A program made the translations under genes and the position numbers. A stretch of 63,234 nt of DNA from a bacterium (GTDB lineage Bacteria; Patescibacteriota; Andersenbacteria; UBA10190): assembly GCA_043811915.1 (NCBI GenBank), contig JBDRMS010000011.1:1-63234 (forward strand), given 5' to 3'. Of the stretch, positions 1 to 22,859 are shown piece after piece (positions within the stretch are counted from its first letter, which is position 1; each line of letters starts with the position of its first letter). Under the pieces are notes generated by a model that did not search any database, had not been told where the DNA came from, and saw only the letters and a list, made by a program, of their open reading frames with translations.

Positions 1-1131
1 GGCTGGTATGAGATAACGGCCTACACCGACACCAATACTGTTACTCTAGACCGCGCCCCCGACGGCGGCGTTGGCGGAGTAAGCAGCGGCGTCGGCGAAG
101 TGGGCGGCGCCAGAGCCGTGCCCACCGACGCCTTTTTTGAAGCCCTGACCGCCGGCAACACCGTGTACTTGAAGGTGGGCACGTACACTTTGACGGAGAA
201 TGTAAACATTGCTAATGACGGCACCTACGCCCTCCCCATAACCGTCAAAGGCTACAACACCGCCCGCGGAGACAACCCTACAGGCGACAGCCGGCCGACC
301 ATTGCCGCCAATGCTTATGATTGGACATTTGATAATTATTGGACAATACGAAATTTGATATTAACTACAACTGATCTCTTTGGATTTTATGTTGGTCTCT
401 CTAACATTATAGAAAACTGCAAGTCCACCAATAACTCTCCTACTGCAAATCGCTCAGCTTTTTTACTTTCTAGCAATAGCAAACTCATTAACTCTGAAGG
501 AGTATCAACAAATGGAGACGCTGTATCTCTTAGTACCTATAACGGCGTTATTGGTTCATACCTCCATGATAGTAATATTGGAATATCATCAACGCATCGT
601 GTAAACAAAATTTTATTTAACATTATTAACACCAACACAACCGGAATATCCGCAATCAACACTAGCTACAATCGTGGGCATAGCATTGTTGACAACACCA
701 TCTACAACTCCACCACCGGTATCACCTTAACTACTACTCAGCTAAGCTCTTTCATGAACAACATCATCGACAGCAACACCACCGGCGCTTCCGCCACTTC
801 GGAATATAAATCCAACTGGTGGGATTACAACAACTGGTCCAACAACGGCGCCGATGTCTCTAACGTTACCAAAGGAGACAACGCCCTGGCCCTCGACCCC
901 GGCTTCACCGACGCGCCTAACGGCATTTTTACCATCGCTTCCTCCCTGGCAGCCAAGGCCTTTCCCGGTCTCTTCCCCGGTGCCCTCACCACCGGCTATC
1001 TGGACACCGGCGCCGTGCAGCGGCAGGAATCCACTCCCACTCCAACCCCTTCCCCAACCCCCGCTACCTCGCCTTCCTTGATCATCAAAGGTGGACCGCT
1101 GCTCTTCAAGGGCGGATACACTATCAAATAA
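1..1131 (+). CDS. Surface/secreted right-handed parallel beta-helix repeat protein, 5'-truncated by the window edge, with a C-terminal Pro/Thr/Ser linker
   Basis: Frame 1 has no stop from base 1 to the TAA at 1129-1131, so the GTG at 100 need not be the start. Repeated N/T/G-rich turns (NTNTTGISAINT, YNSTTGITLTT, IDSNTTGASAT) fit PbH1-type beta-helix coils. The tail is STPTPTPSPTPATSPS followed by LIIKGGPLLFKGGYTIK. Confidence 0.6.
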   Translation, partial: GWYEITAYTDTNTVTLDRAPDGGVGGVSSGVGEVGGARAVPTDAFFEALTAGNTVYLKVGTYTLTENVNIANDGTYALPITVKGYNTARGDNPTGDSRPTIAANAYDWTFDNYWTIRNLILTTTDLFGFYVGLSNIIENCKSTNNSPTANRSAFLLSSNSKLINSEGVSTNGDAVSLSTYNGVIGSYLHDSNIGISSTHRVNKILFNIINTNTTGISAINTSYNRGHSIVDNTIYNSTTGITLTTTQLSSFMNNIIDSNTTGASATSEYKSNWWDYNNWSNNGADVSNVTKGDNALALDPGFTDAPNGIFTIASSLAAKAFPGLFPGALTTGYLDTGAVQRQESTPTPTPSPTPATSPSLIIKGGPLLFKGGYTIK

Positions 1132-1242
1132 GTACAATACAAACCTCCGATGTTTGTTTTGCCGCTACAAGCCGTGAGGCAGCAATATATTACAAGTAAT
1201 CCCTGCTTATACTGCCACCAATTAGTCTAATTTCCCAGCCTA

Positions 1243-1251
1243 TGGCATAAT
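1243..1251 (+). promoter_or_regulatory. Extended -10-like element TGgCATAAT, 9 nt upstream of the ATG at 1261 (leaderless or near-leaderless mRNA)
   Basis: TGGCATAAT is read directly at 1243-1251. There is no Shine-Dalgarno between it and the start codon. Confidence 0.35.
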
Positions 1252-1260
1252 GAATACTGC

Positions 1261-1575
1261 ATGACCCCCAAAACAAAAAAGGATAACGAAAACAAGCCAG
1301 CCACCAAAGCTGATGTAGCCAATCTAAGCGAGGATATCGACCACTTGGCAATTGCTACCAAAAATACTTTCACTCGCCTGGAAAAAGATATCTCTGGTCT
1401 TAAGAAAGGCCAAGCTAATTTAGAAAAAGGCCAAGCCGGCTTGAAAGAAAACCAGGAGAGAATACTGTCAATCGTCCAGTCGATTGACGAGCACTTCAAA
1501 GAGTACCGCGACCTTCCCGGAAAAGTTGAGAACCTCGAAGTGGACGTCTTCAAGCTCCAGACCCGCCCGCGCTAA
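1261..1575 (+). CDS. Small coiled-coil protein (104 aa), paralog of 21716-21988
   Basis: Heptad-like charged sequence. It aligns clearly with the 90-aa ORF at 21716 (KPATKADVANLS / EPATQHDLSLLS; QERILSIVQSIDEHFKE / QEAILNVVQSIDTQLRE; VENLEVDVF / IRRLERSVF). Confidence 0.6.
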   Translation: MTPKTKKDNENKPATKADVANLSEDIDHLAIATKNTFTRLEKDISGLKKGQANLEKGQAGLKENQERILSIVQSIDEHFKEYRDLPGKVENLEVDVFKLQTRPR

Positions 1576-1627
1576 ACTCAAACCTTAAACTCAACTTAAA
1601 CTAAACTCGCGGAGATCGCGCCCATTC

Positions 1628-1657
1628 AATACTCCATATGACGTTATATGGAGTATT
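1628..1657. repeat. 30-bp palindrome AATACTCCATATgACGTTATATGGAGTATT (one G/T mismatch); copy 1 of a repeated palindromic element
   Basis: Base-by-base pairing around the centre at 1642/1643. It lies between convergent genes ending at 1575 (+) and 1708 (-). The core CTCCATAT(A/G)ACGTTATATGGAG recurs at 51312-51333. Confidence 0.75.
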
Positions 1658-1707
1658 AGCTTTAATTAGCGATAAATATCCCAACTGTCATCCTACTACT
1701 AAATAAT

Positions 1708-3129
1708 CTACCGCCAGGTGTCGAGCCAGAAAAGCATGTCGTGCAGTTCTCGCGGTAGCAAAAAGCCGTAAGTCAGGGGACTGAATATCACAAACATGGC
1801 CACCACCGCCCCTAGTAAAACAAAGTAATACTTTGGCTGCTTTAGCACACTGCCCGGCTTGAAAAATCCCTGGCCGTCTAACCACAAAACTCCGGCCAGC
1901 AAGGCAAACAACAGCGGCATCAGATAATGATAAAGAAACAGCGCCCGCGGCACCCGCATTAAGGGAACATAGGCGATAAAATAGCCAAAAATTAGAATCC
2001 ACATCATATTTGAAAATTGAAAATTGCTGCGCCCGCCGAAGCCTTTGGCGAAGGCTGGGAAAATTGAAAATTTTCTTCTCAATTCAAACAATCTTCGTAG
2101 TAACGAAAGGCATGCGAAAAAAAGTACAATTATGAATAATGCACTTCCCCCCCACCACACCAGCGGATTTCCCAAAAAGTAAATCGCTCCCGCCCGCCCC
2201 TCACCACCGCCGTACACCCAGTAAAACACCGAGGTCTGCATGATCGGCCAACTCCACCAAGAGCTGGCGTCCTGGTGCGTCGCCTCCAGATTATAATTCG
2301 CATCATACATTATCTTGTGTAATTCTTTTGTTTCTCTGATAAAGTCGGTCAAAATAAAGCCGTTCCACTGCGGCACCCGCCAGGCGTCGCCCGACCCGGG
2401 CAGCGGCAACAACGCGAAATGCAGCGCCCACCCCGCGCCGTACACAGCCATCCCGCTAACTGCAATCAACAAACCCACCGCCAGATACCGCCTCAACATC
2501 CTGTATGTTGTTGCCCGCAACATACTCCAGGCAATCAAAACCCCTATCAAGCCAACAGCCGCAAGTCCCGTAAACTTGGCTCCCACCGCCAATCCGCACA
2601 GCGCTCCCGTCAATAAACCGCCCGCCACCCAACGCTGCTTGTTTTCCATCCACAAATACGCGCTTATCGCCCCAAATATTGCCACCAGTAGAAGACCGTC
2701 CAATGAAATAATCCGGTTTTGCACCGTCAAAGCGTTATCAAACACAGCTATTATTGCCCCCAAAAAAGCCGCTGCATAACTTCCGCCCAGCTGTCGCAAT
2801 AATCGAAACAGAACCAGCGGCAATAAAACCCCCATTATTGCCGGTACCAGCCGAAAGCCTATTGGCGAAACGTCTCCATATTTCTGCCCGATACTTGAAA
2901 AAGACAGCCCCCCTTTGTAACCGGCAAGTTTTGCCATACCAGCCACCAGTAACTTGGCGTGAGGCGGGTGAATATCAAAAAATCGCTCCCCCGTACAGCA
3001 ATACGCCGTCACAAACTTGCCGAAGTGTACCTCGTCAAAAACCACTTCCCGCGGATAGTCTAGCCACATGAATTGGGTCGCCACTCCCGCCGTTATAATT
3101 ATTATTGCCAGCCAGGTACGTTCTCTCAT
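1708..3129 (-). CDS. GT39 / PMT-family dolichyl-(polyprenyl)-phosphate-mannose protein mannosyltransferase, polytopic membrane protein
   Basis: N-terminal YPREVVFDEVHFGKF motif (the DE...HFGK loop 1 of PMT/GT39 enzymes) and many TM helices. It is the last gene of the pilus operon, 3 nt after the preceding stop. Confidence 0.8.
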   Translation of the reverse strand: MRERTWLAIIIITAGVATQFMWLDYPREVVFDEVHFGKFVTAYCCTGERFFDIHPPHAKLLVAGMAKLAGYKGGLSFSSIGQKYGDVSPIGFRLVPAIMGVLLPLVLFRLLRQLGGSYAAAFLGAIIAVFDNALTVQNRIISLDGLLLVAIFGAISAYLWMENKQRWVAGGLLTGALCGLAVGAKFTGLAAVGLIGVLIAWSMLRATTYRMLRRYLAVGLLIAVSGMAVYGAGWALHFALLPLPGSGDAWRVPQWNGFILTDFIRETKELHKIMYDANYNLEATHQDASSWWSWPIMQTSVFYWVYGGGEGRAGAIYFLGNPLVWWGGSALFIIVLFFACLSLLRRLFELRRKFSIFPAFAKGFGGRSNFQFSNMMWILIFGYFIAYVPLMRVPRALFLYHYLMPLLFALLAGVLWLDGQGFFKPGSVLKQPKYYFVLLGAVVAMFVIFSPLTYGFLLPRELHDMLFWLDTWR

Positions 3130-3132
3130 CGG

Positions 3133-4908
3133 CTACGGCGAAGGCGACGGCGAAGGCGATGATACCAGATCATCATTTATGATCACCACTGTAGCCGTAG
3201 CCCGGCCTATTTGTACATCATGAGCGTTGCTTATCGCTCTTACTACTACCGCAGCGAAATCTTCATCAGCCTCCGCGATGTTATCACCAATCACCTCGGC
3301 CGGCACCACCTGGCTCTGCGGCCCACCCGGGTTAAACGTTAGTGTTACATTCGACCCGGTATAGTCATTGTCCGCCAGCCAAGCTCCCCCATCCTGTAAT
3401 TCCACTCTGACAGTCAAGGTGTCAACCACTACTTGCGACAAAGAAACCCTGAAAGCAACTGCGGTCGTGTCGGGAAAATTTCCTTCTAAAACTTCCGCCG
3501 GGCCGACATTGTCAATATTCACCGTTAATTGAGCCGGCGCCCCGTCAAAAACGCAGCTGCCGGGCGATCCCGTGCAGCTTCCTCCGATTTCGCTACACCC
3601 GGCCGGCCCTTCTGCCACCACTTCAACACTGCACCCCTGCGTCCAGCCACCCCAATAATAACTACACTCCGCGTTATCTGCACAAATAGTCCGACAGGCC
3701 CCGGAGGCACCGCACATCTCCCCACTAGCACAATCCTCATCTCCGTCACAAGCATCATTACTAGACGTCAAATTACACTCCTTGCCATTAGCACACCAGC
3801 TCCGGTTAGGATCAATATCGGGATCCGGCGGAGGACACGATACAGGGTTACACTCCTCCAAGCCGGGACAATTACCGCCCGGGTTATATCCGCCACGGCA
3901 GGAAGATACCGCCCCGCCTGCTGTCGCCGCTCGGCAATTCGGCACCCATGTTGTCTGACACTGTCGCACTACTTGCCAGCGTCCACAGCCGGTAAACGAC
4001 TCCGAATCTATATACTGACAACTCGATTGACAGCCAGCGGGACAATCCAGTGATGTCTCGCACCGGTCCTGCTTACAAACCATCGGACTGCTGTCTGCCG
4101 GACCGGTGTTATCATCCGACGGAAAAGTGATATCATACCAGTCCTCCTGGTAACAAAAACCGCTGAAGCATACATTTTGCGCCGGACACGTCCAGTCAGG
4201 ACAGCTAGCCGTGGGACACACGCCGCTTAACGGGCACAACGCCCCACTGGCGCACATTCCGCCCGGCATACAAGCATCTCCCTGTGGGTCAACCAAGGGT
4301 ATAGCCGTGCCGGCATCGGGACATAAACCGGCCAGTGGACACAATGTCCCGTTATCGCACAAAAGCCCCGGCGTACACGGCAAACCGGAAGGTGACGGCG
4401 GTACAGACACCGGTGGATTACAAATACCCGTCGTCGCGTCACAGCTCCGCGAGTCAGGGCAGGACACGCACGACTTTGGTTCGCCTTTCTCCGAAATATA
4501 CGTTACTACCTGCGTGTCGCGCACCGCCCCCGATGCCGCCGGCCACTCCACCAGTAGTTCCACTTTTTTGTAATCATTAGTTTCAGCCGTCAGCGGATCA
4601 TCCACGTATTGTATGGCCATAGTGAGCTGGTAAGTCTGGTTATTACGAACCACCGTTTCAACATACCCGGCAATCACTCCCGCTGGCTCGCCCGCGCCCG
4701 GCGACACAAACCCCACATCGTTATACGGCAACGATTCAATAAATTCTTTATACTCATTAACAATGGCCAGCGCTGCCACCTGCCGCTCCGCCTCCACCAG
4801 CAACCGCGTCGTTAATACCGACAAACCCAGTATCCCCACCGCAATTAAAGCAATAACAAACACCGACACCAGCACCTCAATCACGCTTTGTCCTTCTTCG
4901 CCAATCAT
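3133..4908 (-). CDS. Giant type IV pilin-like protein (591 aa): prepilin N-terminus, Cys-rich module, C-terminal Calx-beta-like domain
   Basis: MIGEEG|QSVIEVLVSVFVIALIAV has Glu at +5. I counted about 40 Cys between residues ~146 and ~455. The C-terminal region (DNDYTGSNVTLTFNPGGPQSQVVPAEVIGDNIAEADEDF) matches the Calx-beta consensus. The protein ends in SSPSPSPSP. Confidence 0.75.
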   Translation of the reverse strand: MIGEEGQSVIEVLVSVFVIALIAVGILGLSVLTTRLLVEAERQVAALAIVNEYKEFIESLPYNDVGFVSPGAGEPAGVIAGYVETVVRNNQTYQLTMAIQYVDDPLTAETNDYKKVELLVEWPAASGAVRDTQVVTYISEKGEPKSCVSCPDSRSCDATTGICNPPVSVPPSPSGLPCTPGLLCDNGTLCPLAGLCPDAGTAIPLVDPQGDACMPGGMCASGALCPLSGVCPTASCPDWTCPAQNVCFSGFCYQEDWYDITFPSDDNTGPADSSPMVCKQDRCETSLDCPAGCQSSCQYIDSESFTGCGRWQVVRQCQTTWVPNCRAATAGGAVSSCRGGYNPGGNCPGLEECNPVSCPPPDPDIDPNRSWCANGKECNLTSSNDACDGDEDCASGEMCGASGACRTICADNAECSYYWGGWTQGCSVEVVAEGPAGCSEIGGSCTGSPGSCVFDGAPAQLTVNIDNVGPAEVLEGNFPDTTAVAFRVSLSQVVVDTLTVRVELQDGGAWLADNDYTGSNVTLTFNPGGPQSQVVPAEVIGDNIAEADEDFAAVVVRAISNAHDVQIGRATATVVIINDDLVSSPSPSPSP

Positions 4909-5534
4909 GGAGCCGGCTTAAGATGCCCCCTCCTCGGCGTCGCTACTGTATTTATCGTCACCGCCGCCGGCAACTGATTTTCATCAACATCAATCACTAA
5001 AGAGATTTCCACTCTGTCAATTGCCTTTATATCAAAAGCCGGGTCAACCGCCACCGCCCTCGCTCCCCCCAGAGAATAAAATGTAAACAGGGAGCGCGTC
5101 TGCGATACATTGCGAACATTAACAGACAACACGTTCGACACTTCACCCCCTCCGGGCAACTCTGTCACTCCCCTCATTAATTTACTGCCGTCCAGCCAAT
5201 AGTGCACCTTCTCCGACGCGCTATCGGCATCGGTATTGGAATAAATCACTATCTCATTCGGACCGGCCTGTTGGATCCACCGTTCCTCTCCCCCGCTAAA
5301 TTGGCCGTCGCCGTCGAAATCAATACTGTGAGCATTACGGATAACATCGCTCATTCGTTCCATCTCTGTCCTTGCCTCTTCCACTATCCCTCCCTGCTCT
5401 ATCTGCATTCTTGACAGTCCAAAAACCCTGATTGCCAGAGAAAACAACGCCACCAGCACCACGGACCCCACCGCTACCGCTATCAACACCTCAATAAAAG
5501 TCAGCCCCCTTTCTTTAGCTTTTTTAATCATCAT
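4905..5534 (-). CDS. Type IV pilin-like (minor pilin/pseudopilin) protein, 209 aa
   Basis: MMIKKAKERG|LTFIEVLIAVAVGSVVLVAL is a prepilin cleavage/methylation motif with Glu5. There is a 4-nt overlap with the downstream gene. Confidence 0.8.
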   Translation of the reverse strand: MMIKKAKERGLTFIEVLIAVAVGSVVLVALFSLAIRVFGLSRMQIEQGGIVEEARTEMERMSDVIRNAHSIDFDGDGQFSGGEERWIQQAGPNEIVIYSNTDADSASEKVHYWLDGSKLMRGVTELPGGGEVSNVLSVNVRNVSQTRSLFTFYSLGGARAVAVDPAFDIKAIDRVEISLVIDVDENQLPAAVTINTVATPRRGHLKPAP

Positions 5535-6393
5535 CTATGATCCACACATTACGACTAGTCGGCCACGCTAAATTGCCGTTCCTCGGATTGCTAATAACCC
5601 CGCGCAAATACTCAATCGGCCACCAGCCTCCCCAGCGCTCCCACACGTTGTCAGCCACAATGTTAACCATCACCGTCTTCGACACCTCGCCCGGATTAAA
5701 GACCACCGCCTGATCCGCCGGCACAAAATCCTCCCCCGGCGTGGCCGCTATCGAGTAACCCTCCGCCCTAAAATCAACCGTCACCCGCAAGGGGTAGACA
5801 TGCGACAACACAATGGTAAAAGCCACTTGATTAACATCCGGCGGATCACCCTCTACTACCATCATCGTCCAAGCAGGGTTAAACTTTATTGTCGGCAGCG
5901 CCGTCTCCACCCCCGGCGCCCCGCACGTCACCTCCAAATCATGGTCCCACGACCGCGCGTAATATTCTGTTGTATCAGCCAGCGCCCCCGTCATTGACTC
6001 AATATCGGCCACTATCCGCTGGCACCGATTCTCTACCTCCAAATCATGGGCCAGCGCGGTAACGGTCACTGACCCGCCCCCCGCGCCGGCAAAAGTCAGC
6101 TCGTAACTGCCCATTATATGCCCCGCCGCGTCCTGCACCACCCCCACCAACGGACTGCTTAACCCCAGAAGATCGTCCGGCGTGTAAACCCCGCTGTTCA
6201 GAAAAAACAAAGTGCGCTCAACGCCGGCCTCGCCCACCTGAAAAGCCTGCTCTTCCTGTTCCTGGTCCGTAACCTCGTGGGATTGCCTGACAGCAAAGCC
6301 GAGCCACGCCGTGGCGATGACTAAAAACACCACAAAAAACATCAGCGTCATCGTCAGTACAGCACCCCGCTGCCTAAAATTTCTACCTTCCAT
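5524..6393 (-). CDS. PilX/GspK-like pilus-associated protein with a C-terminal Calx-beta-like domain, 289 aa
   Basis: N-terminal RQRG|AVLTMTLMFFVVFLVIATA hydrophobic helix without Glu5. The C-terminus (AATPGEDFVPADQAVVFNPGEVSKTVMVNIVADNVWE) fits Calx-beta. Confidence 0.6.
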   Translation of the reverse strand: MEGRNFRQRGAVLTMTLMFFVVFLVIATAWLGFAVRQSHEVTDQEQEEQAFQVGEAGVERTLFFLNSGVYTPDDLLGLSSPLVGVVQDAAGHIMGSYELTFAGAGGGSVTVTALAHDLEVENRCQRIVADIESMTGALADTTEYYARSWDHDLEVTCGAPGVETALPTIKFNPAWTMMVVEGDPPDVNQVAFTIVLSHVYPLRVTVDFRAEGYSIAATPGEDFVPADQAVVFNPGEVSKTVMVNIVADNVWERWGGWWPIEYLRGVISNPRNGNLAWPTSRNVWIIDDD

Positions 6394-6409
6394 AGAATAA
6401 AAATACCTC

Positions 6410-7027
6410 TTATTCGACTTCCTGTCCCAGGTTGGTTTTTAAGTTTCTAAGCTGCACCTGTGACAACACTTCCACCGGCGGCGGGTCTTCATCTACATTC
6501 GCGTCAATCAATAATCTAAATTCTATGTACTTAACTTCCGTCAGATCTATCGGCGACAAAGGCACCGGGTCCGCCGGGTAATTGCCCGAGTAATACGTAA
6601 ATATATCGCTGGCTCCATTACGTACCGCTCCCGCTACCACCGCCGTTTCTTCTTCTTCCTCATTGTACGCCAGCGGATCTCCGCTCGGTTTTATAATCCC
6701 CCGCGTAAGGTTAGTTCCCACTAGTTCGTAGCGTACTCTCTCCGTTATATCGTCGCTGTCCACATCCGAATAAAAAATAATCTTTTGTGGCTCCATAGCC
6801 ACTAACGGATACCCGCCCGTATCTGACTCCCGCGCCTCCCGCAGACCCTTGGATATGCGCTTCAACTGTACCCGTGCTGTTTCTGTTGCGCTGGCCTGCA
6901 AAAAAACTATCCGCGATAACGGATACCCGACCGCCATAAAACGCAACAGCGCCACCAGAATAATCGAACTGATACTTACCACCAGTATTATCTCCACCAG
7001 CGTCACTCCCTGGATTAATTTCTTCAT
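6410..7027 (-). CDS. Type IV pilin-like protein, about 205 aa (start moved to the internal ATG)
   Basis: MKKLIQG|VTLVEIILVVSISSIILVAL has Glu5. The ATG at 7027 forms an ATGA overlap with the stop of the upstream gene (7024-7026). The longer ORF-track start at 7051 would add a non-pilin leader. Confidence 0.8.
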   Translation of the reverse strand: MKKLIQGVTLVEIILVVSISSIILVALLRFMAVGYPLSRIVFLQASATETARVQLKRISKGLREARESDTGGYPLVAMEPQKIIFYSDVDSDDITERVRYELVGTNLTRGIIKPSGDPLAYNEEEEETAVVAGAVRNGASDIFTYYSGNYPADPVPLSPIDLTEVKYIEFRLLIDANVDEDPPPVEVLSQVQLRNLKTNLGQEVE

Positions 7028-8493
7028 TCGTTCGGCGTCAGCTCCACCCACACTCGGTCGCTATTTTCCACCGCTACCACTTGCGCGCTTTCCTGAAAAC
7101 CAGGCGCATTCACCGTCAAGTCATAATCGCCATTCCCCGGCAGGCTATCAAAAAACACCTGTCCCAATATTCCAGTCCCTTCACCCTCGTTATACCCCTG
7201 TCCCTCCAGGTTCACCGTGGCATTATCAACCGGCAAACCATCCGGCGAGATTACCGTTACATGAAGCGAGAACAACGTATATGGCACCAGCTTCACTGTC
7301 ATATCCAGCACTTCTCCCGGATTAACCGTGAGTGGCAGCAACAAACTCGTTTCCTTAATATCATACCCGGTCGCCGCCCCGTCAATTGAAAAATCATACC
7401 TGTCCCATACCAGGTTCTCGTAACTTGCCTGGCCCATCTCATCGGTTTGTCCTGCATCATCAAGCACGTACACGCTATCGCCATTTCCATCCACCCCAAT
7501 TGTCCTCGTTCCCCGAAAACTATAAGCCACGCTTAATGGCGCCCCGGTCTCATCGTCCTGCGTAGTCACAGATAAACTGGACACTTGGTCAATCACGAAT
7601 GTCTTACTGGTTAACTCGCGCACAATCATCGATAAGTGGGAATGATCATTATCTGGATAAAAGCTGGCCGTCGCGTCATATGTCTGCTCACTCGTATAGC
7701 CGGGAAAACTTACCGCCAACTCATAACTGTCTGCGCTTTCGGGCAGCCCCGGCAACACCAGTCGGCCTTCCGCGTTCGTCTCCGTTGTCATATCAATTGC
7801 CGGATTAGTCGCGTCATTGACAATCCGCACCGTCGCCCCTTCAACACCCGCTCCCTGCACATTCAATGCCTGAAAATCCAGCGTGCCGCCCAACTCCCCT
7901 CCCTCCATGCCCTGGGGAACCACCTGGGTAATAAACACCACCGACCGTATAGAATTCGGATGGTTCCAGTTCACTTCCACCCGTACTTGTTTGTAGTCAG
8001 TATTAATTTCATCACCCGGCAGCGAACCTTCCCCTCCCGTATCACATGTCCCTGTCGTATCGCCATGCGCCAAATGCGCATCCAGAGCCGCCGCCGGCAC
8101 TTCCATTGTTCTCTCCGAAGATGTACCCGGTTTATGACAAATAGTTATTTTCTCCTGTCCGCTACCTCCATCCAGCACCTGGCCGTCAAAAGGGTCGTCA
8201 ATATAACGAATATCTGTGCGCACCGTGTACGTCACACCATTACGTACCACTTCTTCTTCCTGTGGAATACTGCCGGCCGGCACTCCGCCAACCGTACCCA
8301 CATCAACGTAAGGCAGGTTCCGGACCATCTCCACTCGCTCGTTAGCCAGCGCCACCGCCGCCACCCGCCGCTCCCCCTCTTGAGCCGTACGCAGCGTCAG
8401 TACAAACAAACCAAACACCCCCGTCAACGTCGTCCCGATAATAAACGTCGCAATCAGGAGTTCAATTAAAGTAAACCCCTGTTGCGCTTTCAT
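7024..8493 (-). CDS. Large type IV pilin-like protein (489 aa) with two carboxypeptidase-regulatory-like beta-sandwich domains
   Basis: MKAQQG|FTLIELLIATFIIG is a canonical prepilin motif. GVEGATVRIVNDATN...NAEGRLVLPGLPESADSYELAVSFPGY and DGLPVDNATVNLEG...GDYDLTVNAPGF resemble CarboxypepD_reg folds. There is an internal ICHKPG...AHLAHGDTTGTC motif. TAATG junction with pilC at 8493. Confidence 0.8.
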   Translation of the reverse strand: MKAQQGFTLIELLIATFIIGTTLTGVFGLFVLTLRTAQEGERRVAAVALANERVEMVRNLPYVDVGTVGGVPAGSIPQEEEVVRNGVTYTVRTDIRYIDDPFDGQVLDGGSGQEKITICHKPGTSSERTMEVPAAALDAHLAHGDTTGTCDTGGEGSLPGDEINTDYKQVRVEVNWNHPNSIRSVVFITQVVPQGMEGGELGGTLDFQALNVQGAGVEGATVRIVNDATNPAIDMTTETNAEGRLVLPGLPESADSYELAVSFPGYTSEQTYDATASFYPDNDHSHLSMIVRELTSKTFVIDQVSSLSVTTQDDETGAPLSVAYSFRGTRTIGVDGNGDSVYVLDDAGQTDEMGQASYENLVWDRYDFSIDGAATGYDIKETSLLLPLTVNPGEVLDMTVKLVPYTLFSLHVTVISPDGLPVDNATVNLEGQGYNEGEGTGILGQVFFDSLPGNGDYDLTVNAPGFQESAQVVAVENSDRVWVELTPNE

Positions 8494-9710
8494 TAAATAA
8501 CATTTACCAGGTCGTAAATCGGCGATATCACCGACACCGCCAGCGCTCCTACCGCCAAACCCATCAATATCATCAAAATCGGCTCCATAATCGACGTCAA
8601 ATTCTTCATTGTCTGGTCAACTTCCCCCTCGTAAAATAGCGCTATCTCGCTTAAGACTTCATCCAGCGCGCCCGTCTCTTCACCCACCTTAACGATATTC
8701 GTCACAATAGGTGGAAACAGTCGCTTAAAATCTTCCAGAAAGTTGCTTAATTCCTTACCTTGCTTAACATGTTCTCGCGCCGCCACCAATACCCGCGCGT
8801 AACTGGGATGCGGCGTGTTCGCTCCCATTATTTCCAGCGCTTTAATAAAAGAGACGCCGCTGGCCAGAAGTGAACTCAAATTTCGGGCAAAGCGCGCCAG
8901 ATTTATCTTTTGTATTATTGGACCAAGTACCGGTGTCAAAAGCAACCCGTGCAGCACCGTCGCTCTTACCGACGACAATCGCATTGCTCCCCACATACCA
9001 GCCAGCAACACCAGGACACCCACAAAAATAAATGGCCAGAATGATTGAAAAATATCACTAAGGCCAATCAATATTCTTGTCGGCAGTGGCAAAGCTACAT
9101 CAAATCCTTCAAAAACTTCGACCAGTTTCGGCACCACAAAGAACATCATGGCTATCGCTACGGCAACCAAAGCCACCACAATCACCAATGGATACATAAG
9201 ACCCCCCTTCACCGCTCGCCCCAACTCGTATTCTTTCTGCAACTGTTGGGCCACGACTTCCAGTGACTCCTGCAAACGGCCAGTTGCCTCTCCCACCTGT
9301 ACAAAACTTACAAATAGAGGTGGAAACGCATTAGGAAACATTTGCATACTTTCCGCCAGACCTTTTCCTCTCTCAATGTCACTATAAAGTGCCTTCAGCG
9401 CCACCTTCATCGGCTTGCTACGCGTCTGCTGCTCCAAAGCCACCAACGACCGCTTAATATCCAGCCCCGCCCGTAGCATCAAAGCAAAATAGCGTGCGAA
9501 CAGTGCCCGCTCCAGCACCGGCACCCGATTAAACAAGCTGGAAAATAATGTCGCCCCCGGCAGACGCTGTGCCCTCTGCATATAACGCGTCAGTAACACT
9601 CCTTCACTTAACAAATCCTGCCCTAAAGTAGCGTGGCTGGTCGCCTCCCGCAGTCCCTGCACTAATTCTCCTGTTTTCTCTCTTCGACCTTCAAATGAAT
9701 AAATTGGCAT
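8493..9710 (-). CDS. pilC: Type IV pilus / T2SS platform protein, GspF/PilC family
   Basis: 405 aa, two repeated T2SSF-type halves, three TM segments, position immediately after pilB. Confidence 0.9.
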   Translation of the reverse strand: MPIYSFEGRREKTGELVQGLREATSHATLGQDLLSEGVLLTRYMQRAQRLPGATLFSSLFNRVPVLERALFARYFALMLRAGLDIKRSLVALEQQTRSKPMKVALKALYSDIERGKGLAESMQMFPNAFPPLFVSFVQVGEATGRLQESLEVVAQQLQKEYELGRAVKGGLMYPLVIVVALVAVAIAMMFFVVPKLVEVFEGFDVALPLPTRILIGLSDIFQSFWPFIFVGVLVLLAGMWGAMRLSSVRATVLHGLLLTPVLGPIIQKINLARFARNLSSLLASGVSFIKALEIMGANTPHPSYARVLVAAREHVKQGKELSNFLEDFKRLFPPIVTNIVKVGEETGALDEVLSEIALFYEGEVDQTMKNLTSIMEPILMILMGLAVGALAVSVISPIYDLVNVI

Positions 9711-9719
9711 AGTATTATC

Positions 9720-11453
9720 CTACTCCCTGGCTACACGTAATACTTCTTCTAAACTAGTCACTCCTGTAGCCACTTTTATAAATCCATCTTCAACCATATT
9801 TATCATACCCTGTTCTTTACGAGCCGCCGTCTCCAGTTCTGCCGACGTAGTTTGCGGCCTTATTATTGCCCGAATCTCCGGCGTTATCTCCATCACCTCG
9901 TAAATACCAACTCGCCCTTTGTATCCGTCGCGACACCTCTTGCACCCCTCTGCTTTATACATAACCACATCACTCCAGCCGCCTCCGTCCTTAATCACCC
10001 CTTCCCGCTGCAGCACAGCTAAAATAGCCTCCATATCAAACTCTTCCTGCATCTCCTTGACCACCGCCGCTGAAAACTTCTCCTTCTTGCGACATTTCTC
10101 ACACAAACGCCGGACCAGACGTTGGGCCATCACCAGATTCAACGTCGAGGCCAGCAAAAATGCCTCTATTTTCATATCCCGCAACCGCGGCAGCGCCCCT
10201 GCCGCACTATTCGTGTGCAACGTCGACAACACCAAATGCCCCGTCAGCGCGGCATTGACTGCCAGCGATGCCGTCTCCTCGTCTCTAATCTCTCCCACCA
10301 TAATAACATCCGGGTCCTGCCGCACTAACGACCGCAGGCCATTAGCAAACGTCAAACCAATCTTTGTTTTTACCTGGGTTTGATTAACCCGCAACATCCG
10401 ATACTCAATCGGATCCTCGATAGTGCTAATATTCACCTCCGGCGTACTCACTTCTTTCATTGCCGCGTACAAAGTTGTTGTTTTACCGGAGCCGGTCGGT
10501 CCCGTTACCAGCACCATGCCATTAGGACGTTTAATAGCCCGCCGCAACATCTTCAGCAGTTTTTCGTGCAAACCCAGGTCGTCCAGCCCTAAACTCTGTC
10601 CTGACTCATCCAGCAGACGCATTACCACCTTTTCCCCATCGTACACCGGCAGCGTTGATACGCGAAAAGCTATCTTATATTCTTCCGACTCCAGCTTAAA
10701 ACGACCATCCTGCGGCAAGCGATGTTCATCAATTTTCAAATTAGCCAACACCTTGATACGCGCCACCAGTCCAGACAGCACCGTCCTGGGCAAAATTAAC
10801 ATATCATGCAAAATACCATCAATGCGATAACGGATAATCACTTTGGTTTCCGTCGGCTCAATGTGAATATCAGAAGCCCTCTGCAAAATTGCGTGCTTAA
10901 GTATCGCTTGCGTCACACGAATAATAGGCAAGTCGTCAGCCGCCTTCAACAAATCCCCTTCAGTCATCACTACATTCTTCAACTCCTTGCTCACCACATC
11001 AGACAGTTCTGCCTCCAGACTCTGCTGGTATAAATTCAACGCTTCGCGCACTGCCGATACGCTGGCTTGAGATACCTCTACCGGCAAATCAACTTTTTTA
11101 TGAACAAACTCCACCATTTGCCGATCTCCCGGGTCAGCCATAGCCACCCGTAAAACTTCGCCTGTCTTCTCATAGGCCACAATCATGTGTTCCCGCGCCG
11201 ACGACTCGGGGATAATAGTCAGCACCTCGCGCGGTATGGTTTTTTCTCTCAAGTCAACAAATGGTACTCCTGCCACTTTCGCCTGCACCTGCGCCAGTAC
11301 TCCATCATCAACCAGCCCCGTTTCCGCCAACGTGGTATACAAAGTAGCCCCGCCAGCCAGCTGCTGCTGAATTTCAGCCAACTTGGCATCACTCTTCAGC
11401 GAACCACGCTCAATCAGGGTCTGCAAAACACTCTTGACAGTATCCTCCGCCAC
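9720..11453 (-). CDS. pilB: Type IV pilus assembly ATPase, GspE/PilB family, with an N-terminal T2SSE_N domain
   Basis: Walker A VTGPTGSGKTT, Asp/His boxes, tetracysteine motif CEKC...CKRC, 577 aa. Confidence 0.92.
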   Translation of the reverse strand: MAEDTVKSVLQTLIERGSLKSDAKLAEIQQQLAGGATLYTTLAETGLVDDGVLAQVQAKVAGVPFVDLREKTIPREVLTIIPESSAREHMIVAYEKTGEVLRVAMADPGDRQMVEFVHKKVDLPVEVSQASVSAVREALNLYQQSLEAELSDVVSKELKNVVMTEGDLLKAADDLPIIRVTQAILKHAILQRASDIHIEPTETKVIIRYRIDGILHDMLILPRTVLSGLVARIKVLANLKIDEHRLPQDGRFKLESEEYKIAFRVSTLPVYDGEKVVMRLLDESGQSLGLDDLGLHEKLLKMLRRAIKRPNGMVLVTGPTGSGKTTTLYAAMKEVSTPEVNISTIEDPIEYRMLRVNQTQVKTKIGLTFANGLRSLVRQDPDVIMVGEIRDEETASLAVNAALTGHLVLSTLHTNSAAGALPRLRDMKIEAFLLASTLNLVMAQRLVRRLCEKCRKKEKFSAAVVKEMQEEFDMEAILAVLQREGVIKDGGGWSDVVMYKAEGCKRCRDGYKGRVGIYEVMEITPEIRAIIRPQTTSAELETAARKEQGMINMVEDGFIKVATGVTSLEEVLRVARE

Positions 11454-11476
11454 CTAACTAGTGTACCATATGTTGC

Positions 11477-12220
11477 ATGAACGACTCTCCTGCTCTCAAA
11501 GTCGCCAGTCTTAGTGTTGAACTCGATGGCCACACCATTATCGATGACATCAATTTTACCGTCTCAGCCGGCTCAACTACCGCCATCATCGGACCAAATG
11601 GAGCCGGCAAATCAGTTTTGCTCAAAGCTATTTTGCGCTTGCTGCCAAAGACCAGCGGCCAAGTCCGCATTTTCGGTATTGAACACGAAAAGTACCGCCG
11701 TGTAGCTCCTTTACTCTCCTACATTCCCCAAGTAGTCAGCTTCGACCGGTCCTTCCCCCTCACCGTTCAAGGCCTCTTCTCCCTAAAATCGCCCCGCCCT
11801 CTCGGCATGAGCAGCACAGAGTCTCGTCGCGCCGGCGAACTTCTCGATCTGGTCGGCGCCAGCCACCTGGCGAACCAGCGTCTGGGCATATTATCCGGCG
11901 GCCAACTACAGCGCGTCCTGCTGGCTTATAGTTTAATGGATCAACCTAAACTTCTTCTGCTCGACGAGCCAGCCGCCGGCATTGATGTCCAGGGACAGGA
12001 AACTATTTATCCCCTACTCGCCCGCATCCAAAAAGAAGAGCAGTTGACCATGGTTATTGTCAGTCACGAATTGGAAATCGTTGTAGAGTACGCCGACCAG
12101 GTCTTGTGTCTTAACAAAAAAATTATGTGCTCCGGCCTGCCTCACAAAGTCCTCTCCAATGAAACCTTGCAACAAATGTACGGCACTCCAGTTAGTCATT
12201 TCTCCCACCACCACCGATAA
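11477..12220 (+). CDS. Metal (Zn/Mn-type, ABC-3) ABC transporter ATP-binding protein
   Basis: GPNGAGKS Walker A, LSGGQLQRV signature, LLLDEP Walker B. It is followed by an ABC-3 permease. Confidence 0.85.
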   Translation: MNDSPALKVASLSVELDGHTIIDDINFTVSAGSTTAIIGPNGAGKSVLLKAILRLLPKTSGQVRIFGIEHEKYRRVAPLLSYIPQVVSFDRSFPLTVQGLFSLKSPRPLGMSSTESRRAGELLDLVGASHLANQRLGILSGGQLQRVLLAYSLMDQPKLLLLDEPAAGIDVQGQETIYPLLARIQKEEQLTMVIVSHELEIVVEYADQVLCLNKKIMCSGLPHKVLSNETLQQMYGTPVSHFSHHHR

Positions 12221-16518: not shown

Positions 16519-17923
16519 CTCCTTGCTTCATAGTTTCCAGTATAGTATCTCTCCTTTTATTCGTATAGTTGCCAATTGTCAGAAATCGTTGACACAATAA
16601 GCGCACTTCGGCCGCTATACGCCGTATTTCATCCGAACGATCCATTGTCATCTCAAATTCATCAAATTCTTGCCCACCCCATGGTCTGCATATTTCCAGT
16701 ACCTGTGCCATCCAGTCGGCAATATACTCCATATCATCCTCCTTCATGCCCCGCGTTGTTACCCAGGGCGTTCCCAGTCGCAAAGCCGAAGGATCGGCTG
16801 GCGAGCGCGTCTCCTGCGGCATAGTGTTAAAATTAACCACCAGTCCCGCATAATCCAGAGCCCGAGCCAGCTTCTTTCCCAACAGCGGCGCTTTGTCGGT
16901 TAAATCAATCAGCACTAAGTGTTTATCAGTTCCTCCCGCCACCAGCTTAAAATCACGTCTCGCCAACTCTTCCGCCAGCCGCTTGGCGTTACTCACCACT
17001 CGCCGGGCATACTCCTTGAATTCCGGCTTTAACACCTCCCCCAACCCCACACAAATACCGGCTACGTTGTGATTGTGCGGGCCACCTTGTAAACCCGGCA
17101 GCACCGCCTTGTTTATTTTCTTTATCAAATCCCACTGTGCCAATATAATAGCCCCTCGCCCCGCCCGCAGCGTTTTATGGGTTGTCATAGTTACAATATC
17201 TGCTACTCCAACCGGCGAGGGAATAATGCCGGCCGCCACCAGCCCCGCCTCATGAGCAATATCAGCCATATACAACGCCCCCACCGTCTCGGCTATTGTT
17301 TTTATCTCCTGATGATTAATCAGTCTGGGATAAGCCGTACCCCCGGTAATAATCAGTTTGGGCTTGTAATCTCTGGCAATTCTGGCAATTTCGTTATAAT
17401 CAAAAAGCTGTGTTTTCGGGTTCGTTTTGTACTGCACCGTCTCAAACATACGCGACGTAATGTGCACCTTGCGGCTGCCGCCTAAATACACCAGCTGATT
17501 CGGGTCCGCCTTCTCTCTGGGCTCATAAGACCAGCCGTGCGACAAGTGACCCCCGTCCGGCAGATACATACCCATCATGGTATCCCCCGCTTCCATCACT
17601 GCCAGATAAACCGCCAAATTGGCGTTGCTGCCCGATAACGCCTGCACATTTACATCCCAGTCATCCGGTAAATTAAACGCCCGCCGCGCCCGGCTTATAG
17701 TCAGGCTCTCCAGTTCATCAACGTGCTGGTTCCCCTCGTAATATCGTCGATCCACATTGCCCTCCGAATATTTGTGCATAAACACCGACCCCACCGCTTC
17801 TCGCACCGCCGGGGAAAAGAAATTCTCCGAGGGAATTAAAGACAACTTATTCTGCTGCCGCTCCTCTTCGGCTCTAACGATGCCAAACACCACCGGGTCC
17901 ATTTTTTCGAGAGCGCCACTCAT
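16499..17923 (-). CDS. glyA: Serine hydroxymethyltransferase
   Basis: PLP-lysine motif TTHKTLRAGRG and full-length SHMT-like sequence. ATGA overlap with the upstream thyX-like gene. Confidence 0.93.
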   Translation of the reverse strand: MSGALEKMDPVVFGIVRAEEERQQNKLSLIPSENFFSPAVREAVGSVFMHKYSEGNVDRRYYEGNQHVDELESLTISRARRAFNLPDDWDVNVQALSGSNANLAVYLAVMEAGDTMMGMYLPDGGHLSHGWSYEPREKADPNQLVYLGGSRKVHITSRMFETVQYKTNPKTQLFDYNEIARIARDYKPKLIITGGTAYPRLINHQEIKTIAETVGALYMADIAHEAGLVAAGIIPSPVGVADIVTMTTHKTLRAGRGAIILAQWDLIKKINKAVLPGLQGGPHNHNVAGICVGLGEVLKPEFKEYARRVVSNAKRLAEELARRDFKLVAGGTDKHLVLIDLTDKAPLLGKKLARALDYAGLVVNFNTMPQETRSPADPSALRLGTPWVTTRGMKEDDMEYIADWMAQVLEICRPWGGQEFDEFEMTMDRSDEIRRIAAEVRLLCQRFLTIGNYTNKRRDTILETMKQGGELYGE

Positions 17924-19626
17924 GTCGCCACCCCCGATAATTCTTTTAGCTTGGCCTGAATTTTTTCTTCCTGCCCCCGCCGGGCAAAATCATATTTTCC
18001 CATATTAACACGCATGTGCCACGCTATTAAAGGATACACCTTTTCAATCAATCGAAACTTCTCCTGCTCAATAAATCTATAATCCGAATGTCCCTCTGGA
18101 ATAGTACGCAGTTCCATTTCCCAGAAACACGCCCGCAGGTTCTGCCACTGCATAAACCGCACCCGATGGGCCAAGGTCACCGCATACTGCGCCAATTCAT
18201 GGTCATGCGAGGCAATCTTTTCATACACCCCTTCCGCCCGTTCAACTGCCAAGCGGAAAGCTCCCGCCAGGCCTGCCTCCTCTATATCCGCCGGCACATC
18301 ATAACCATGTTGAATACAAAACTGCTGGCGCTGTTGCGTTAACATGCGATGCCGATGCAGATCCCGCCAACCTCCGATATTCATAATAACTTCAAACCTG
18401 ACGTAAGCACTTTCAAAAGCACGCCCCACTTTTTGCCAACGCTCTCCCCGCCCACTAAGATATTGGTTAATAATTTCTTTCTTACTCAATTCGCTCATCC
18501 CCCGCACCTTGACCAACGTGTCCCCCCATGATGCTCGGTTGGCCGAAGCTGAATACAGCATAGCCGTAATAATTTTCGTCTCGCCTTCACTGTCACTCTC
18601 AACCAAGGTCACCCGCGGACAACTGCCCGCTCCGGCCATCTCCGGCTGCAAATCCGCCAGGTGCTTTCCCGCCAGCGGCGCTACCCGTTGATTGCGACGC
18701 GCCATGTATTCCTGGTACTGCTCCGCCGCTCCCCGCGAGCCGGTATCTTTCAAACGCCGCAAAAATGACGGCACTATTTTGTACAATTCCCGATACGCTT
18801 CCTCCGCCGCCCAACGAATCTCCCCCAGGCGATGCCTGGCACTGCGTGCAATCATGTATTCAAAAGCCTGGCCGTTACCAAACAAGGCTAGTTGCGACAA
18901 GGTTGCTGCCGGTAACAAGCCCCGCACCGCGTCAAACGCCTTTTTCTCCAACACAGACACATTCTCCTTAGGCCAGCGTTTACCCAACCATACTTTAAGC
19001 TTTTCCTTTAGTTCCTCATACGTTTCAAACAACCCGTCCATCGCTTCCCGATATTCATTCTCCAAACCATAACCCATTAGCCGCGGGTCAGTGTAATATC
19101 GCCATTGCCCTCCCATCTTACTCGAATAATCCACATACCTGGTCGACTTCTCAATCGGAGCCAAGCCAATGCGCTGATCTTCAAAATGCTTTATCGCTAT
19201 TTGCGATATCCCTGTAAACACCAGGTGGGTCCCGGCCATCTGGGCAATTGAATCATCACCAAACTGCGCCAGCCACTTGTTATAAAAATTGCGGGCTCTC
19301 GGATTGGAAAAAATACTTTCTACCGGATGCTCGTGCAAAAATTCAACAAAAGCCTGTAAGTCATGCCCATATTTCTCCTCCGACTCCAAAAAAGGCTTCA
19401 GATATTCATCCAAAAATACTCGGCGCAGGTCTCCCTCCGCCCGAGACGTGCGCGAACACAAGGCACCAATTATTTCCGGTGAAAAAACAACTGGCACATA
19501 TACCGACCTATCAAGATTAGTAAAAAACGGAGACAACATCTCCGCCTCCCGCCACCCAAAACTATCCCGTTCAAAGGGCGGCGCAAACTCCGCCAGCTCT
19601 ATTTCGTCATCTGACATCCTATCCAT
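17920..19626 (-). CDS. thyX: Long-form (tandem-domain) FAD-dependent thymidylate synthase ThyX-like protein
   Basis: The C-terminal half carries WRDLHRHRMLTQQ (RHR ThyX motif). The N-terminal half has a degenerate copy (FGDDSIAQMAG...IEKSTRYVDY). Translationally coupled to glyA. Confidence 0.6.
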   Translation of the reverse strand: MDRMSDDEIELAEFAPPFERDSFGWREAEMLSPFFTNLDRSVYVPVVFSPEIIGALCSRTSRAEGDLRRVFLDEYLKPFLESEEKYGHDLQAFVEFLHEHPVESIFSNPRARNFYNKWLAQFGDDSIAQMAGTHLVFTGISQIAIKHFEDQRIGLAPIEKSTRYVDYSSKMGGQWRYYTDPRLMGYGLENEYREAMDGLFETYEELKEKLKVWLGKRWPKENVSVLEKKAFDAVRGLLPAATLSQLALFGNGQAFEYMIARSARHRLGEIRWAAEEAYRELYKIVPSFLRRLKDTGSRGAAEQYQEYMARRNQRVAPLAGKHLADLQPEMAGAGSCPRVTLVESDSEGETKIITAMLYSASANRASWGDTLVKVRGMSELSKKEIINQYLSGRGERWQKVGRAFESAYVRFEVIMNIGGWRDLHRHRMLTQQRQQFCIQHGYDVPADIEEAGLAGAFRLAVERAEGVYEKIASHDHELAQYAVTLAHRVRFMQWQNLRACFWEMELRTIPEGHSDYRFIEQEKFRLIEKVYPLIAWHMRVNMGKYDFARRGQEEKIQAKLKELSGVAT

Positions 19627-22000: not shown

Positions 22001-22429
22001 TTACTTATCCACATACGACAGAACAGCTCTACAGTAGCGTGGGTACAGCTTAAGCACCTTTTTTCTACTGGCATCAATCCGCTTTGCGTCCACTCTGTCA
22101 TATTCATGCACCAGCACATTGCGCACCGCCCCGCTGCCGGCTATGTCGGCCGCCAGCTCCGGCGGCAGCGCTCCCATCTTGCCCATCAGCTCAAAAGTCT
22201 CCCGGTAGCTGGCCGGAGACTGCAGCAGCTTCGGATCCGTGTCAGCAATAATGTGGTGGTTAATGTCAATCGCCCGCTGAATAATCTGCTGCATAATGTT
22301 GTTGAAAGCGTGGTGCTGAATAGGGTCGGCAAAAATCTCCGCCATAGTCTTATCCTTGAAATCAACCAAGAGCGCCAAGTCATCAGTTATCGCCTGCACC
22401 TTCTGTTGAATGTACTCCCTGTCTGTCAT
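22001..22429 (-). CDS. hepT: HEPN-domain toxin, HepT/DUF86 family
   Basis: RNVLVHEY (Rx4HxY) motif near the C-terminus. ATGA overlap with the upstream nucleotidyltransferase gene. Confidence 0.85.
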   Translation of the reverse strand: MTDREYIQQKVQAITDDLALLVDFKDKTMAEIFADPIQHHAFNNIMQQIIQRAIDINHHIIADTDPKLLQSPASYRETFELMGKMGALPPELAADIAGSGAVRNVLVHEYDRVDAKRIDASRKKVLKLYPRYCRAVLSYVDK

Positions 22430-22815: not shown

Positions 22816-22859
22816 CTGTCCACCGCTAATCACCATGCCACTAAGTGTAGCGCCGCCTC

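Follow-up and report, generated by a model that had tools for sequence, protein, structure and literature searches.

The contig JBDRMS010000011.1 of assembly GCA_043811915.1 (63,234 bp, analyzed whole and called the window below) contains eight open reading frames (ORFs), all on the minus strand from 11453 down to 1708, which encode PilB, PilC, five pilin-like proteins and a protein O-mannosyltransferase (PMT) of glycosyltransferase family GT39. The region is likely to be the front, promoter-proximal portion of a pilus operon, type IVa-like, in an Andersenbacteria-type member of the Patescibacteria, or candidate phyla radiation (CPR), in which the five pilin-like proteins look like minor “tip” pilins that make up two tip/priming sets of the GspI-J-K type. 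In type II secretion systems (T2SS) and in type IVa pili (T4aP), such minor-pilin sets form the tip that primes polymerization of a separate major pilin, and the shaft pilin of this bacterium is probably encoded elsewhere in the genome. The first-pass annotation of this DNA had proposed a filament made only of oversized pilins, which is not supported, as all five proteins classify as minor, tip or priming pilins. The window is an entire contig, and the visible share of a typical CPR genome is around 5–10%, as estimated from typical CPR genome sizes; the absence of a gene from the window therefore says nothing about the genome.

Table 1. Genes of the operon in the window, in gene order; the pilin classes are proposed assignments
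Gene	Product	Length (aa)	Coordinates	Strand	Motifs and domain matches
PilB	PilB-type extension ATPase, N-terminal MshEN	577	9720..11453	-	PF00437 T2SSE 2.2e-134; PF05157 MshEN 7.8e-14
PilC	PilC/GspF platform protein	405	8493..9710	-	PF00482 T2SSF, two repeats, 9.5e-55
p489	putative modular minor pilin 'I'	489	7024..8493	-	N_methyl 2.5e-7; CarboxypepD_reg 6.7e-19
p205	putative minor pilin 'J', undecorated	205	6410..7027	-	G/VTLVE; GspJ/XcpW/PilW class
p289	putative tip pilin "K'", without Glu5	289	5524..6393	-	RQRG/AVLTM; Calx-beta 3.4e-9
p209	putative minor pilin "J'"	209	4905..5534	-	N_methyl 1.7e-6; p205 paralogue
p591	putative modular minor pilin "I'"	591	3133..4908	-	G/QSVIE; Calx-beta 1.6e-9
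PMT	GT39 PMT, bacterial type without MIR domains	473	1708..3129	-	PF02366 5.8e-41; PF16192 (PMT_4TMC) 3e-34

The genes are tightly packed, with junctions of +9, -1, -4, +16, -11, -4 and +3 nt from PilB to PMT, the second of which is the 1-nt overlap of the PilC gene with that of p489; ORFs and junctions were re-derived and agree with the first-pass annotation. The pilin-like proteins, named here by their size, follow in the order 489, 205, 289, 209 and 591 aa. The cleavage motifs are also as read earlier, G/FTLIE, G/VTLVE, G/LTFIE and G/QSVIE (the slash marks the cleavage site) in four proteins and RQRG/AVLTM, which lacks Glu5, in the fifth. In each of the four, a hydrophobic helix comes after G/xxxxE, as in class III signal peptides (Gly-1, hydrophobic +1, Glu+5). 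The prepilin hidden Markov model (HMM) of Pfam, N_methyl, recognizes p489 (30.4 bits) and p209 (27.8 bits) above threshold, while p205 falls just under it (18.1 vs. 21.2 bits) and no match is reported for p591. The description of the pilins as oversized and domain-decorated is correct for three of the five, with CarboxypepD_reg found in p489, Calx-beta in p289 and p591 and a Cys-rich region in p591, but p205 and p209 are of ordinary GspJ/PilW-class size.

The T2SSE and T2SSF matches bear out a PilB/PilC type IV filament operon of a CPR bacterium. The best NCBIfam model for PilB is TIGR02538 PilB (555 bits, under the equivalog cut-off), and PilB is 50–70% identical to its counterparts in 80 Patescibacteria genomes. 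The best models for PilC are those of GspF/PilC, all under their equivalog cut-offs. Both proteins score against the GspE and GspF models nearly as high as against their own pilus models.

The AlphaFold2 model of p205, built from 52 sequences with a pLDDT of 91.1, was compared with the PDB by Foldseek. The top ten matches are all XcpW/EpsJ/GspJ (E-values 6.5e-5 to 2e-3, probability 1.0, TM 0.51–0.59), and ranks 11–12 are taken by TTHA1219 of Thermus. By its model, p205 is a GspJ/PilW-class minor pilin of ordinary size. A profile of its family aligned with PDB sequences only over the generic N-terminal pilin helix. Its span is counted here from an ATG, while the longest ORF opens at a GTG at 7051 and would give 213 aa. 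There are 344 homologues, and those with an organism name are mostly Andersenbacteria. Comparison of p209 with p205 by phmmer gives ~1e-18, the two are 29% identical, and by this paralogy p209 would belong to the GspJ/PilW class as well. The orthologues of p209 in relatives have 224–959 aa, with added modules. In one related locus (L009, 12379–13086), a p205-type (GspJ-class) pilin that is otherwise undecorated ends in a ~29-residue (TPTPTS)n tail, which reads as a textbook O-glycosylation-type linker.

In p489, a pilin module of residues 1–~205 is followed by about three (2–3) CarboxypepD_reg-type beta-sandwich domains. In p591, a module of residues ~1–145 is followed by a region with 40 Cys (147–452), Calx-beta (482–580) and an SSPSPSPSP tail. 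The N-terminal modules of the two proteins are paralogous (phmmer 4e-20, 40% identity); in the generic operons of Patescibacteria, their counterpart by alignment is the second pilin, which is small. TIGR02523 PilV is the best match in 24 of the 25 members of this I-module family (best 7e-12), followed by ComGE (19 members) and GspI (14 members), all under the curated cut-offs; p489 itself scores 26.8 bits against TIGR02523, where the cut-off is 52.2. The AlphaFold2 model of p489 residues 1–205 (pLDDT 83.5) has a long alpha1 helix and a four-stranded sheet. A Foldseek comparison of this module with the PDB gave nothing better than E 0.1, so the I-class assignment is drawn from the HMM matches, and the family profile aligned with PDB sequences only over the generic N-terminal pilin helix. 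It is probable, but not proven, that the N-terminal modules of p489 and p591 belong to the PilV/GspI class. A homologue search with the 205-aa fragment of p489 returned 18 mostly partial proteins, and the full-length query was used instead; it gave 182 homologues, the 120 listed being 45–82% identical and, where named, Andersenbacteria-type.

The pilin module of p489 contains a ~65-aa Cys/His insertion. The inserted sequence ITICHKPGTSSERTMEVPAAALDAHLAHGDTTGTC (residues ~116–150, window ~8044–8148), in which Cys, His and Asp residues are conserved, is shared by only part of the orthologues. Pfam gives no match to it, and it could bind a metal or be clamped by disulfides as a small element. The p591 orthologue of the closest relative, L090, is 605 aa long with 41 Cys (5e-235). 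The second I-type pilins of two other loci are richer still in cysteine, with 100 Cys in 823 residues in L085 (10719–13190) and 98 Cys in 775 residues in L088 (10727–13054). The window also encodes a DsbA-like thioredoxin that overlaps a VKOR gene (29474–30527) and a second DsbA-like protein (42076–42822); DsbA and VKOR would suit, and could supply, the disulfides of the 40-Cys p591.

The protein without Glu5, p289, contains an N-terminal module of PilX_N/ComZ type (~135 aa) and a C-terminal Calx-beta domain. Its residue +5 is Met, and it carries QAFQVGEAGV, to be compared with the 'AFxxAEAG' module of PilX_N. While its own PilX_N score is only 0.093, PilX_N matches 7 of the 16 family members (best 7e-6) and the family profile matches ComZ of Thermus (6qvi) at 5e-5. 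These family matches agree with the first-pass view of a GspK/PilX-like protein, and p289 is assigned on sequence to the PilX_N/ComZ (GspK-like) family. ComZ is a GspK-like tip pilin (PMC6561018). The p289 orthologue in L090 has 285 aa, also with Calx-beta (2e-92). The relatives encode in addition a longer ComZ-like protein of ~460 aa, the long K, with 'HSNGGIRxDG' in its C-terminal region.

Set 1 would consist of p489 (I) and p205 (J), and its K partner in relatives is the ~460-aa ComZ-like protein encoded past the PMT, the gene of which is not present on this contig. Set 2 would consist of p289 (K', without Glu5, with Calx-beta), p209 (J') and p591 (I', with the disulfide-rich region and Calx-beta). 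The beta-sandwich, Calx-beta and Cys-rich modules carried by the large pilins, which are confirmed by Pfam domains and Cys count, plausibly act as adhesins, as had been suggested.

By analogy with T2SS and T4aP, the prepilins would be cleaved by a PilD encoded elsewhere, and an I-J-K trimer would nucleate on PilC with the Glu5-less K on top. PilB would then drive the polymerization of a small major pilin, also encoded elsewhere, beneath the trimer. The grafted modules would end at the pilus tip, as adhesins or ligand binders directed towards a host cell or a substrate. Most likely, the PMT of the operon would O-mannosylate Ser/Thr residues in the Pro-rich linkers and tails of the pilins, acting at the membrane's outer face before the pilins are assembled. 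The two sets, one conserved and completed in relatives by the ComZ-like K, the other variable, may prime functionally different filaments, by analogy with Synechocystis; alternatively, both may belong to a single larger tip.

Scanning the GTDB genomes with PilB gave 80 related loci (referred to by L numbers), nearly all labelled Patescibacteria, CPR lineage or generically 'bacterium', with one metagenome-assembled genome (MAG) labelled Bdellovibrionales. The nearest PilB loci are 59–70% identical and include MAGs labelled Candidatus Andersenbacteria and generically labelled ones. About 50 Patescibacteria loci have one layout, which is a canonical minor-pilin block: PilB, PilC, two or three pilins, of which the first is weakly GspH-like, a 420–600-aa Glu5-less ComZ-like protein and PilM-N-O (PilM_2 in L058, 1.6e-32). 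Immediately before most Patescibacteria pilB operons (L058 8588–9930 and ~50 others) lie genes for a histidine kinase and for a response regulator of a single domain, a position that is occupied by divergent ABC-transporter genes in the clade of the window.

In this clade, the first pilin after PilC is of the p489 type (440–540 aa) and is followed by the p205 type. Next come, in L007 and L017, the PMT, the long K and PilM/N/O-like genes (the PilM-like ORFs of these two loci being judged from sequence only) and, in L016, the PMT and the long K, after which the available DNA ends. The second set (I', K', J') is inserted before the PMT in L003/L088, L004, L006/L083, L085, L087 and L090. L004 stops directly after the PMT; the others with DNA past it continue with a 439–476-aa long K, a PilM_2 gene and, where the DNA extends, ORFs of PilN/PilO size. 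PilM_2 matches lie in the same operon in L083, L084, L085, L087, L088, L089 and L090. Altogether, the ~460-aa ComZ-like pilin is found past the PMT in nine of the nine relatives with DNA beyond it, followed by PilM/N/O-like genes wherever the DNA continues. The PMT is thus internal to the ancestral operon, which the first-pass annotation had described as ending in the PMT, and the window lacks the continuation. An apparent loss of the PMT in L089 is a 100-N scaffold gap and not a deletion.

This operon is a conserved feature of Andersenbacteria-type genomes. The modules of I' and J' vary from species to species and include a lamin-tail domain (LTD), a ConA-like lectin, LVIVD repeats and the regions with 98–100 Cys, as is expected of surface-exposed binding modules. 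A second PilM gene after the first PilM-N-O block (L090 19719–20621, L017 20440–21486) hints at a second machinery set immediately downstream.

The gene order of L090 (GCA_964562905.1) is identical to that of the window, and nucleotide homology between the two ends at the PMT stop codon (window 1709). The L001 locus, from a second assembly, matches the window only as far as position 1407, at which the L001 contig ends. The site where synteny with L090 stops and the break at 1407 may mark a rearrangement or an assembly junction. No remnants of the long K or of PilM were found by tblastn in window 1–2000. A perfect palindrome with a 13-bp stem, AATACTCCATATGACGTTATATGGAGTATT, lies at 1628..1657, 50 nt 3' of the PMT stop, and is a possible terminator, sited where synteny with the relatives stops. 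A consensus scan for promoters and terminators over 1000–12000 performed no better than shuffles, so the operon boundaries could not be set in this way. The plus strand has, convergent with the PMT gene, a 343-aa beta-helix-like ORF (100–1131; DUF5123, 5.7e-5) whose C-terminal linker reads TPTPTPSPTPATSPS, and none of the related loci has a counterpart of this ORF.

The domain scores (141 and 119 bits for the PMT and PMT_4TMC families, with cut-offs of 22.7 and 32.4) and the conserved catalytic loop argue for a genuine GT39 enzyme, as annotated before. The protein matches Pmt1/Pmt2/Pmt4 in the PDB at 3e-39 to 3e-24, and its loop 'VVFDEVHFGKF' is identical in the alignment to that of the eukaryotic PMT 9i5k. 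It reaches 37.8 bits against the 800-bit cut-off of the NCBIfam Pmt equivalog and is thus a distant member. No polyprenyl-P-mannose synthase was identified in the contig. Orthologues of the PMT lie inside the pilus operon in L003/L088, L004, L006/L083, L007, L016, L017, L085, L087 and L090, that is, in all related loci of sufficient extent, at two different operon positions, which argues for selection on linkage, or functional coupling. Ser/Thr/Pro-rich segments number 12 in the 44 pilin-like proteins of PMT-linked loci and 2 in the 70 elsewhere, both of the latter in L009, a member of the clade whose contig stops before the PMT position. The co-occurrence of the PMT with Ser/Thr/Pro-rich pilin linkers suggests O-mannosylation of pilins.

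Full-text literature searches found no report of GT39 with pilins, in a pilus operon or in Patescibacteria. To our knowledge, studies of GT39 activity in bacteria are confined to Actinobacteria, and none concerned pilins. The actinobacterial enzymes add mannose to Ser/Thr within the disordered linkers of proteins that are exported (PMC11727336). We tentatively propose that the PMT, lodged between the two paralogous sets of tip pilins, could be a dedicated pilin modifier in Andersenbacteria-type Patescibacteria, with mannosylation directed to the Pro/Thr/Ser linkers of adhesin pilins that evolve fast and are rich in disulfides.

Several observations weigh against the assignments given above. 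The PilV/GspI call is drawn from sub-threshold HMM matches that lie mostly in the N-terminal helix region, and the p489 module has no significant structural neighbour in the PDB. The K-class call is weak for p289 itself and leans on its family. Moreover, the major pilin, PilD, PilT and PilMNO were not located in the 63-kb contig: Pfam scans of the ~48 other ORFs gave no PilD (Peptidase_A24), PilT or PilMNO, in agreement with the first-pass annotation, and phmmer searches with the PilM/N/O of relatives and with PilB gave none either, the latter showing no second T2SSE-family ORF in the window. A regular-expression scan of every ORF of at least 40 aa likewise found no further prepilin in the window, as was stated before. 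PilT was not seen in the related loci examined either. With the scattered pilus loci of TM7x as a guide, the absence of a major pilin, PilD and PilT from a 63-kb contig is expected and not special. As to the PMT, for which the pilins are a presumed target, the Ser/Thr/Pro enrichment is confounded by phylogeny, and L007 and L017 keep the enzyme though their pilins have no Ser/Thr/Pro-rich linkers.

These last two loci are also in line with the possibility, which we regard as somewhat doubtful, that the pilus assignment is right and the PMT is a general protein or envelope mannosyltransferase placed in the operon through co-expression or history. The actinobacterial GT39 enzymes modify many secreted proteins (PMC11727336), and the non-pilin ORF beside the PMT (window 100–1131) has a TPTPTPSPTP linker. 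However, the PMT is placed between minor-pilin genes in nine of the nine related loci that reach far enough, in two positions, and the Ser/Thr/Pro-rich linkers are concentrated in pilins of the PMT-linked loci.

A competence (DNA-uptake) pilus or a T2SS-like pseudopilus in place of an adhesive pilus appears unlikely. The conserved Patescibacteria partner is similar to ComZ, which in Thermus serves as a DNA receptor (PMC6561018), PilB and PilC fit the models of GspE and GspF nearly as well as the pilus models, and an ATPase, a platform protein and five pilins equal the gene count of comGA-GG. Yet the ComZ-like long K is not in the window, the modules of set 2 are species-variable beta-sandwich, lectin and Cys-rich domains of binding type, and the relatives carry PilM_2, a marker of T4aP-type machines. 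A T2SS was rejected, as neither the secretin GspD nor GspC/L/M nor a GspG major pseudopilin was found in the Pfam scans of the window, and the relatives have PilM_2 instead; CPR bacteria are generally considered monoderm. A ComG operon was rejected as well, its first pilin after PilC being a ~100-aa ComGC, which is absent here, and not a 489-aa PilV-class protein. The NCBIfam ComGC model matched no pilin of the window at E ≤ 0.1 and only one of the 25 I-module family members (0.033).

The most surprising claim of the first-pass annotation, a filament or short pseudopilus built solely of large decorated pilins and having no conventional major pilin, is very improbable and not supported: a small pilin is indeed absent from the 63-kb contig and from ~10 kb around pilB (as far as the contigs extend) in the 80 related loci, the flanks of which contain no extra small prepilin ORFs outside the operons, and the p489-type operons lack the GspH-like first pilin of other Patescibacteria, but all five proteins are of I, J or K minor-pilin types and none is major-pilin-like, bulky rigid modules fit poorly in a shaft (ComZ, PMC6561018; modular pilins, PMC8179133), TM7x has major pilins with its pilus genes spread over four loci (PMC11623550), and only the small estimated share of the genome mentioned above is visible.

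The two-set pilus operon can be compared with several known systems. The closest in lineage is that of Nanosynbacter lyticus TM7x (T4P-1/T4P-2), one of the Saccharibacteria and thus also a CPR bacterium, which has PilB/PilC machines and, at each locus, some five pilins, with minor pilins similar to PilV and PilW and large Glu5-less or non-canonical PilX proteins with C-terminal binding domains that are proposed to sit at the tip (PMC11623550). Pilin O-glycosylation is predicted there, as here. Unlike the window, the TM7x loci encode small, highly expressed major pilins beside the elaborate minor ones, and locus one also PilT, PilD and PilMNO; the modules are beta-jelly roll and beta-propeller domains as opposed to CarboxypepD_reg, Calx-beta and Cys-rich ones, and the study describes no glycosyltransferase in the pilus loci, where the operon of the window has GT39 (PMC11623550).

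The tip complexes GspI-J-K/XcpV-W-X of T2SS and FimU-PilV-W-X of T4aP share with the window the J fold, as the p205 model superposes on XcpW/EpsJ/GspJ, the best match of the I-type modules to PilV/GspI, a K-type protein without Glu5, and adjacent genes downstream of those for the ATPase and platform. In contrast to these complexes, the window lacks a GspH/FimU-class member and encodes no major (pseudo)pilin in cis, its I-J-K set is duplicated with large grafted domains on I and K, and its host is presumably monoderm with no secretin. The PilA2-PilA3(TTHA1219)-ComZ system of Thermus thermophilus is similar in that the p289 family matches the pilin module of ComZ and p205 resembles TTHA1219, and the relatives have a ~460-aa ComZ-like protein in the same operon (PMC6561018). 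In p289, however, the large C-terminal domain of ComZ is replaced by Calx-beta, and the long form is not on the contig.

Modular pilins, such as PilB and PilC of S. sanguinis, carry a functional module grafted C-terminal to the pilin module and were proposed to be tip-exposed (PMC8179133). By the definition of Raynaud et al. 2021, an N-terminal pilin module with a non-pilus domain, p489, p289 and p591 fit this group. The survey already includes combinations of N_methyl with PF13620 (CarboxypepD_reg), as in p489, and numerous pilins from CPR, which rank with its most frequent architectures; it lists no GT39 association (PMC8179133). The window differs from the survey in having three modular pilins in one operon, one of them with the 40-Cys region that reaches ~100 Cys in relatives.

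The nearest precedent for the enzyme is TfpW, a GT-C arabinosyltransferase encoded beside pilA in P. aeruginosa (10.1101/2020.04.19.049825). Like TfpO/PglL, it is a lipid-carrier-dependent membrane GT-C enzyme next to its presumed pilin substrates; the substrate of TfpW and TfpO is the major pilin, and neither belongs to GT39, unlike the enzyme of the window. Two paralogous minor-pilin sets, proposed to prime functionally different filaments, are described in Synechocystis, where PilX members have beta-solenoid domains (10.64898/2026.02.12.705559). The cyanobacterial sets lie at separate loci and were tested experimentally, whereas the putative sets of the window are interleaved in one operon with the PMT. 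The linkage of GT39 to pilus genes is the part that seems new, and besides it the duplicated, fast-diversifying, Cys-rich tip set.

Other genes of the contig include NeuB fused to a xylose-isomerase-like TIM barrel (626 aa, 31328–33208), with a CMP-sugar cytidylyltransferase nearby (26410–27201). They constitute a nonulosonic-acid pathway in a small-genome bacterium, which is a possible second source of surface glycosylation. ThyX (17920–19626) has 568 aa and two Thy1 matches, about twice the usual length. A HepT-like RNase and an MNT-type nucleotidyltransferase (22001–22863) probably form a toxin-antitoxin system, and a NiFe hydrogenase is encoded at 51714–53469 by genes for its large and its small subunit. 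Neither tRNA genes nor Rfam families at the gathering threshold were found across the 63-kb contig. On the plus strand, GC skew amounts to -0.26 overall, with -0.46 for third codon positions (genes of both strands), and keeps one sign throughout; this very strong asymmetry looks like an unusually large mutational bias linked to replication.

As the means by which ultrasmall CPR bacteria find hosts and hold on to them, type IV pili are the leading candidates, and the pilins that make the contact are known for only one Saccharibacterium. Here, an environmental lineage keeps a stereotyped operon composed of a conserved I-J(-K) set, a fast-diversifying I'-J'-K' set and a GT39 enzyme. The locus offers candidate determinants of host or substrate specificity and a testable set of substrates for bacterial O-mannosylation. 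If the role proposed for the PMT is true, it would be the first pilin glycosylation by a GT39 enzyme and would give protein O-mannosylation its first functional context outside Actinobacteria, in organisms whose life depends on attachment.

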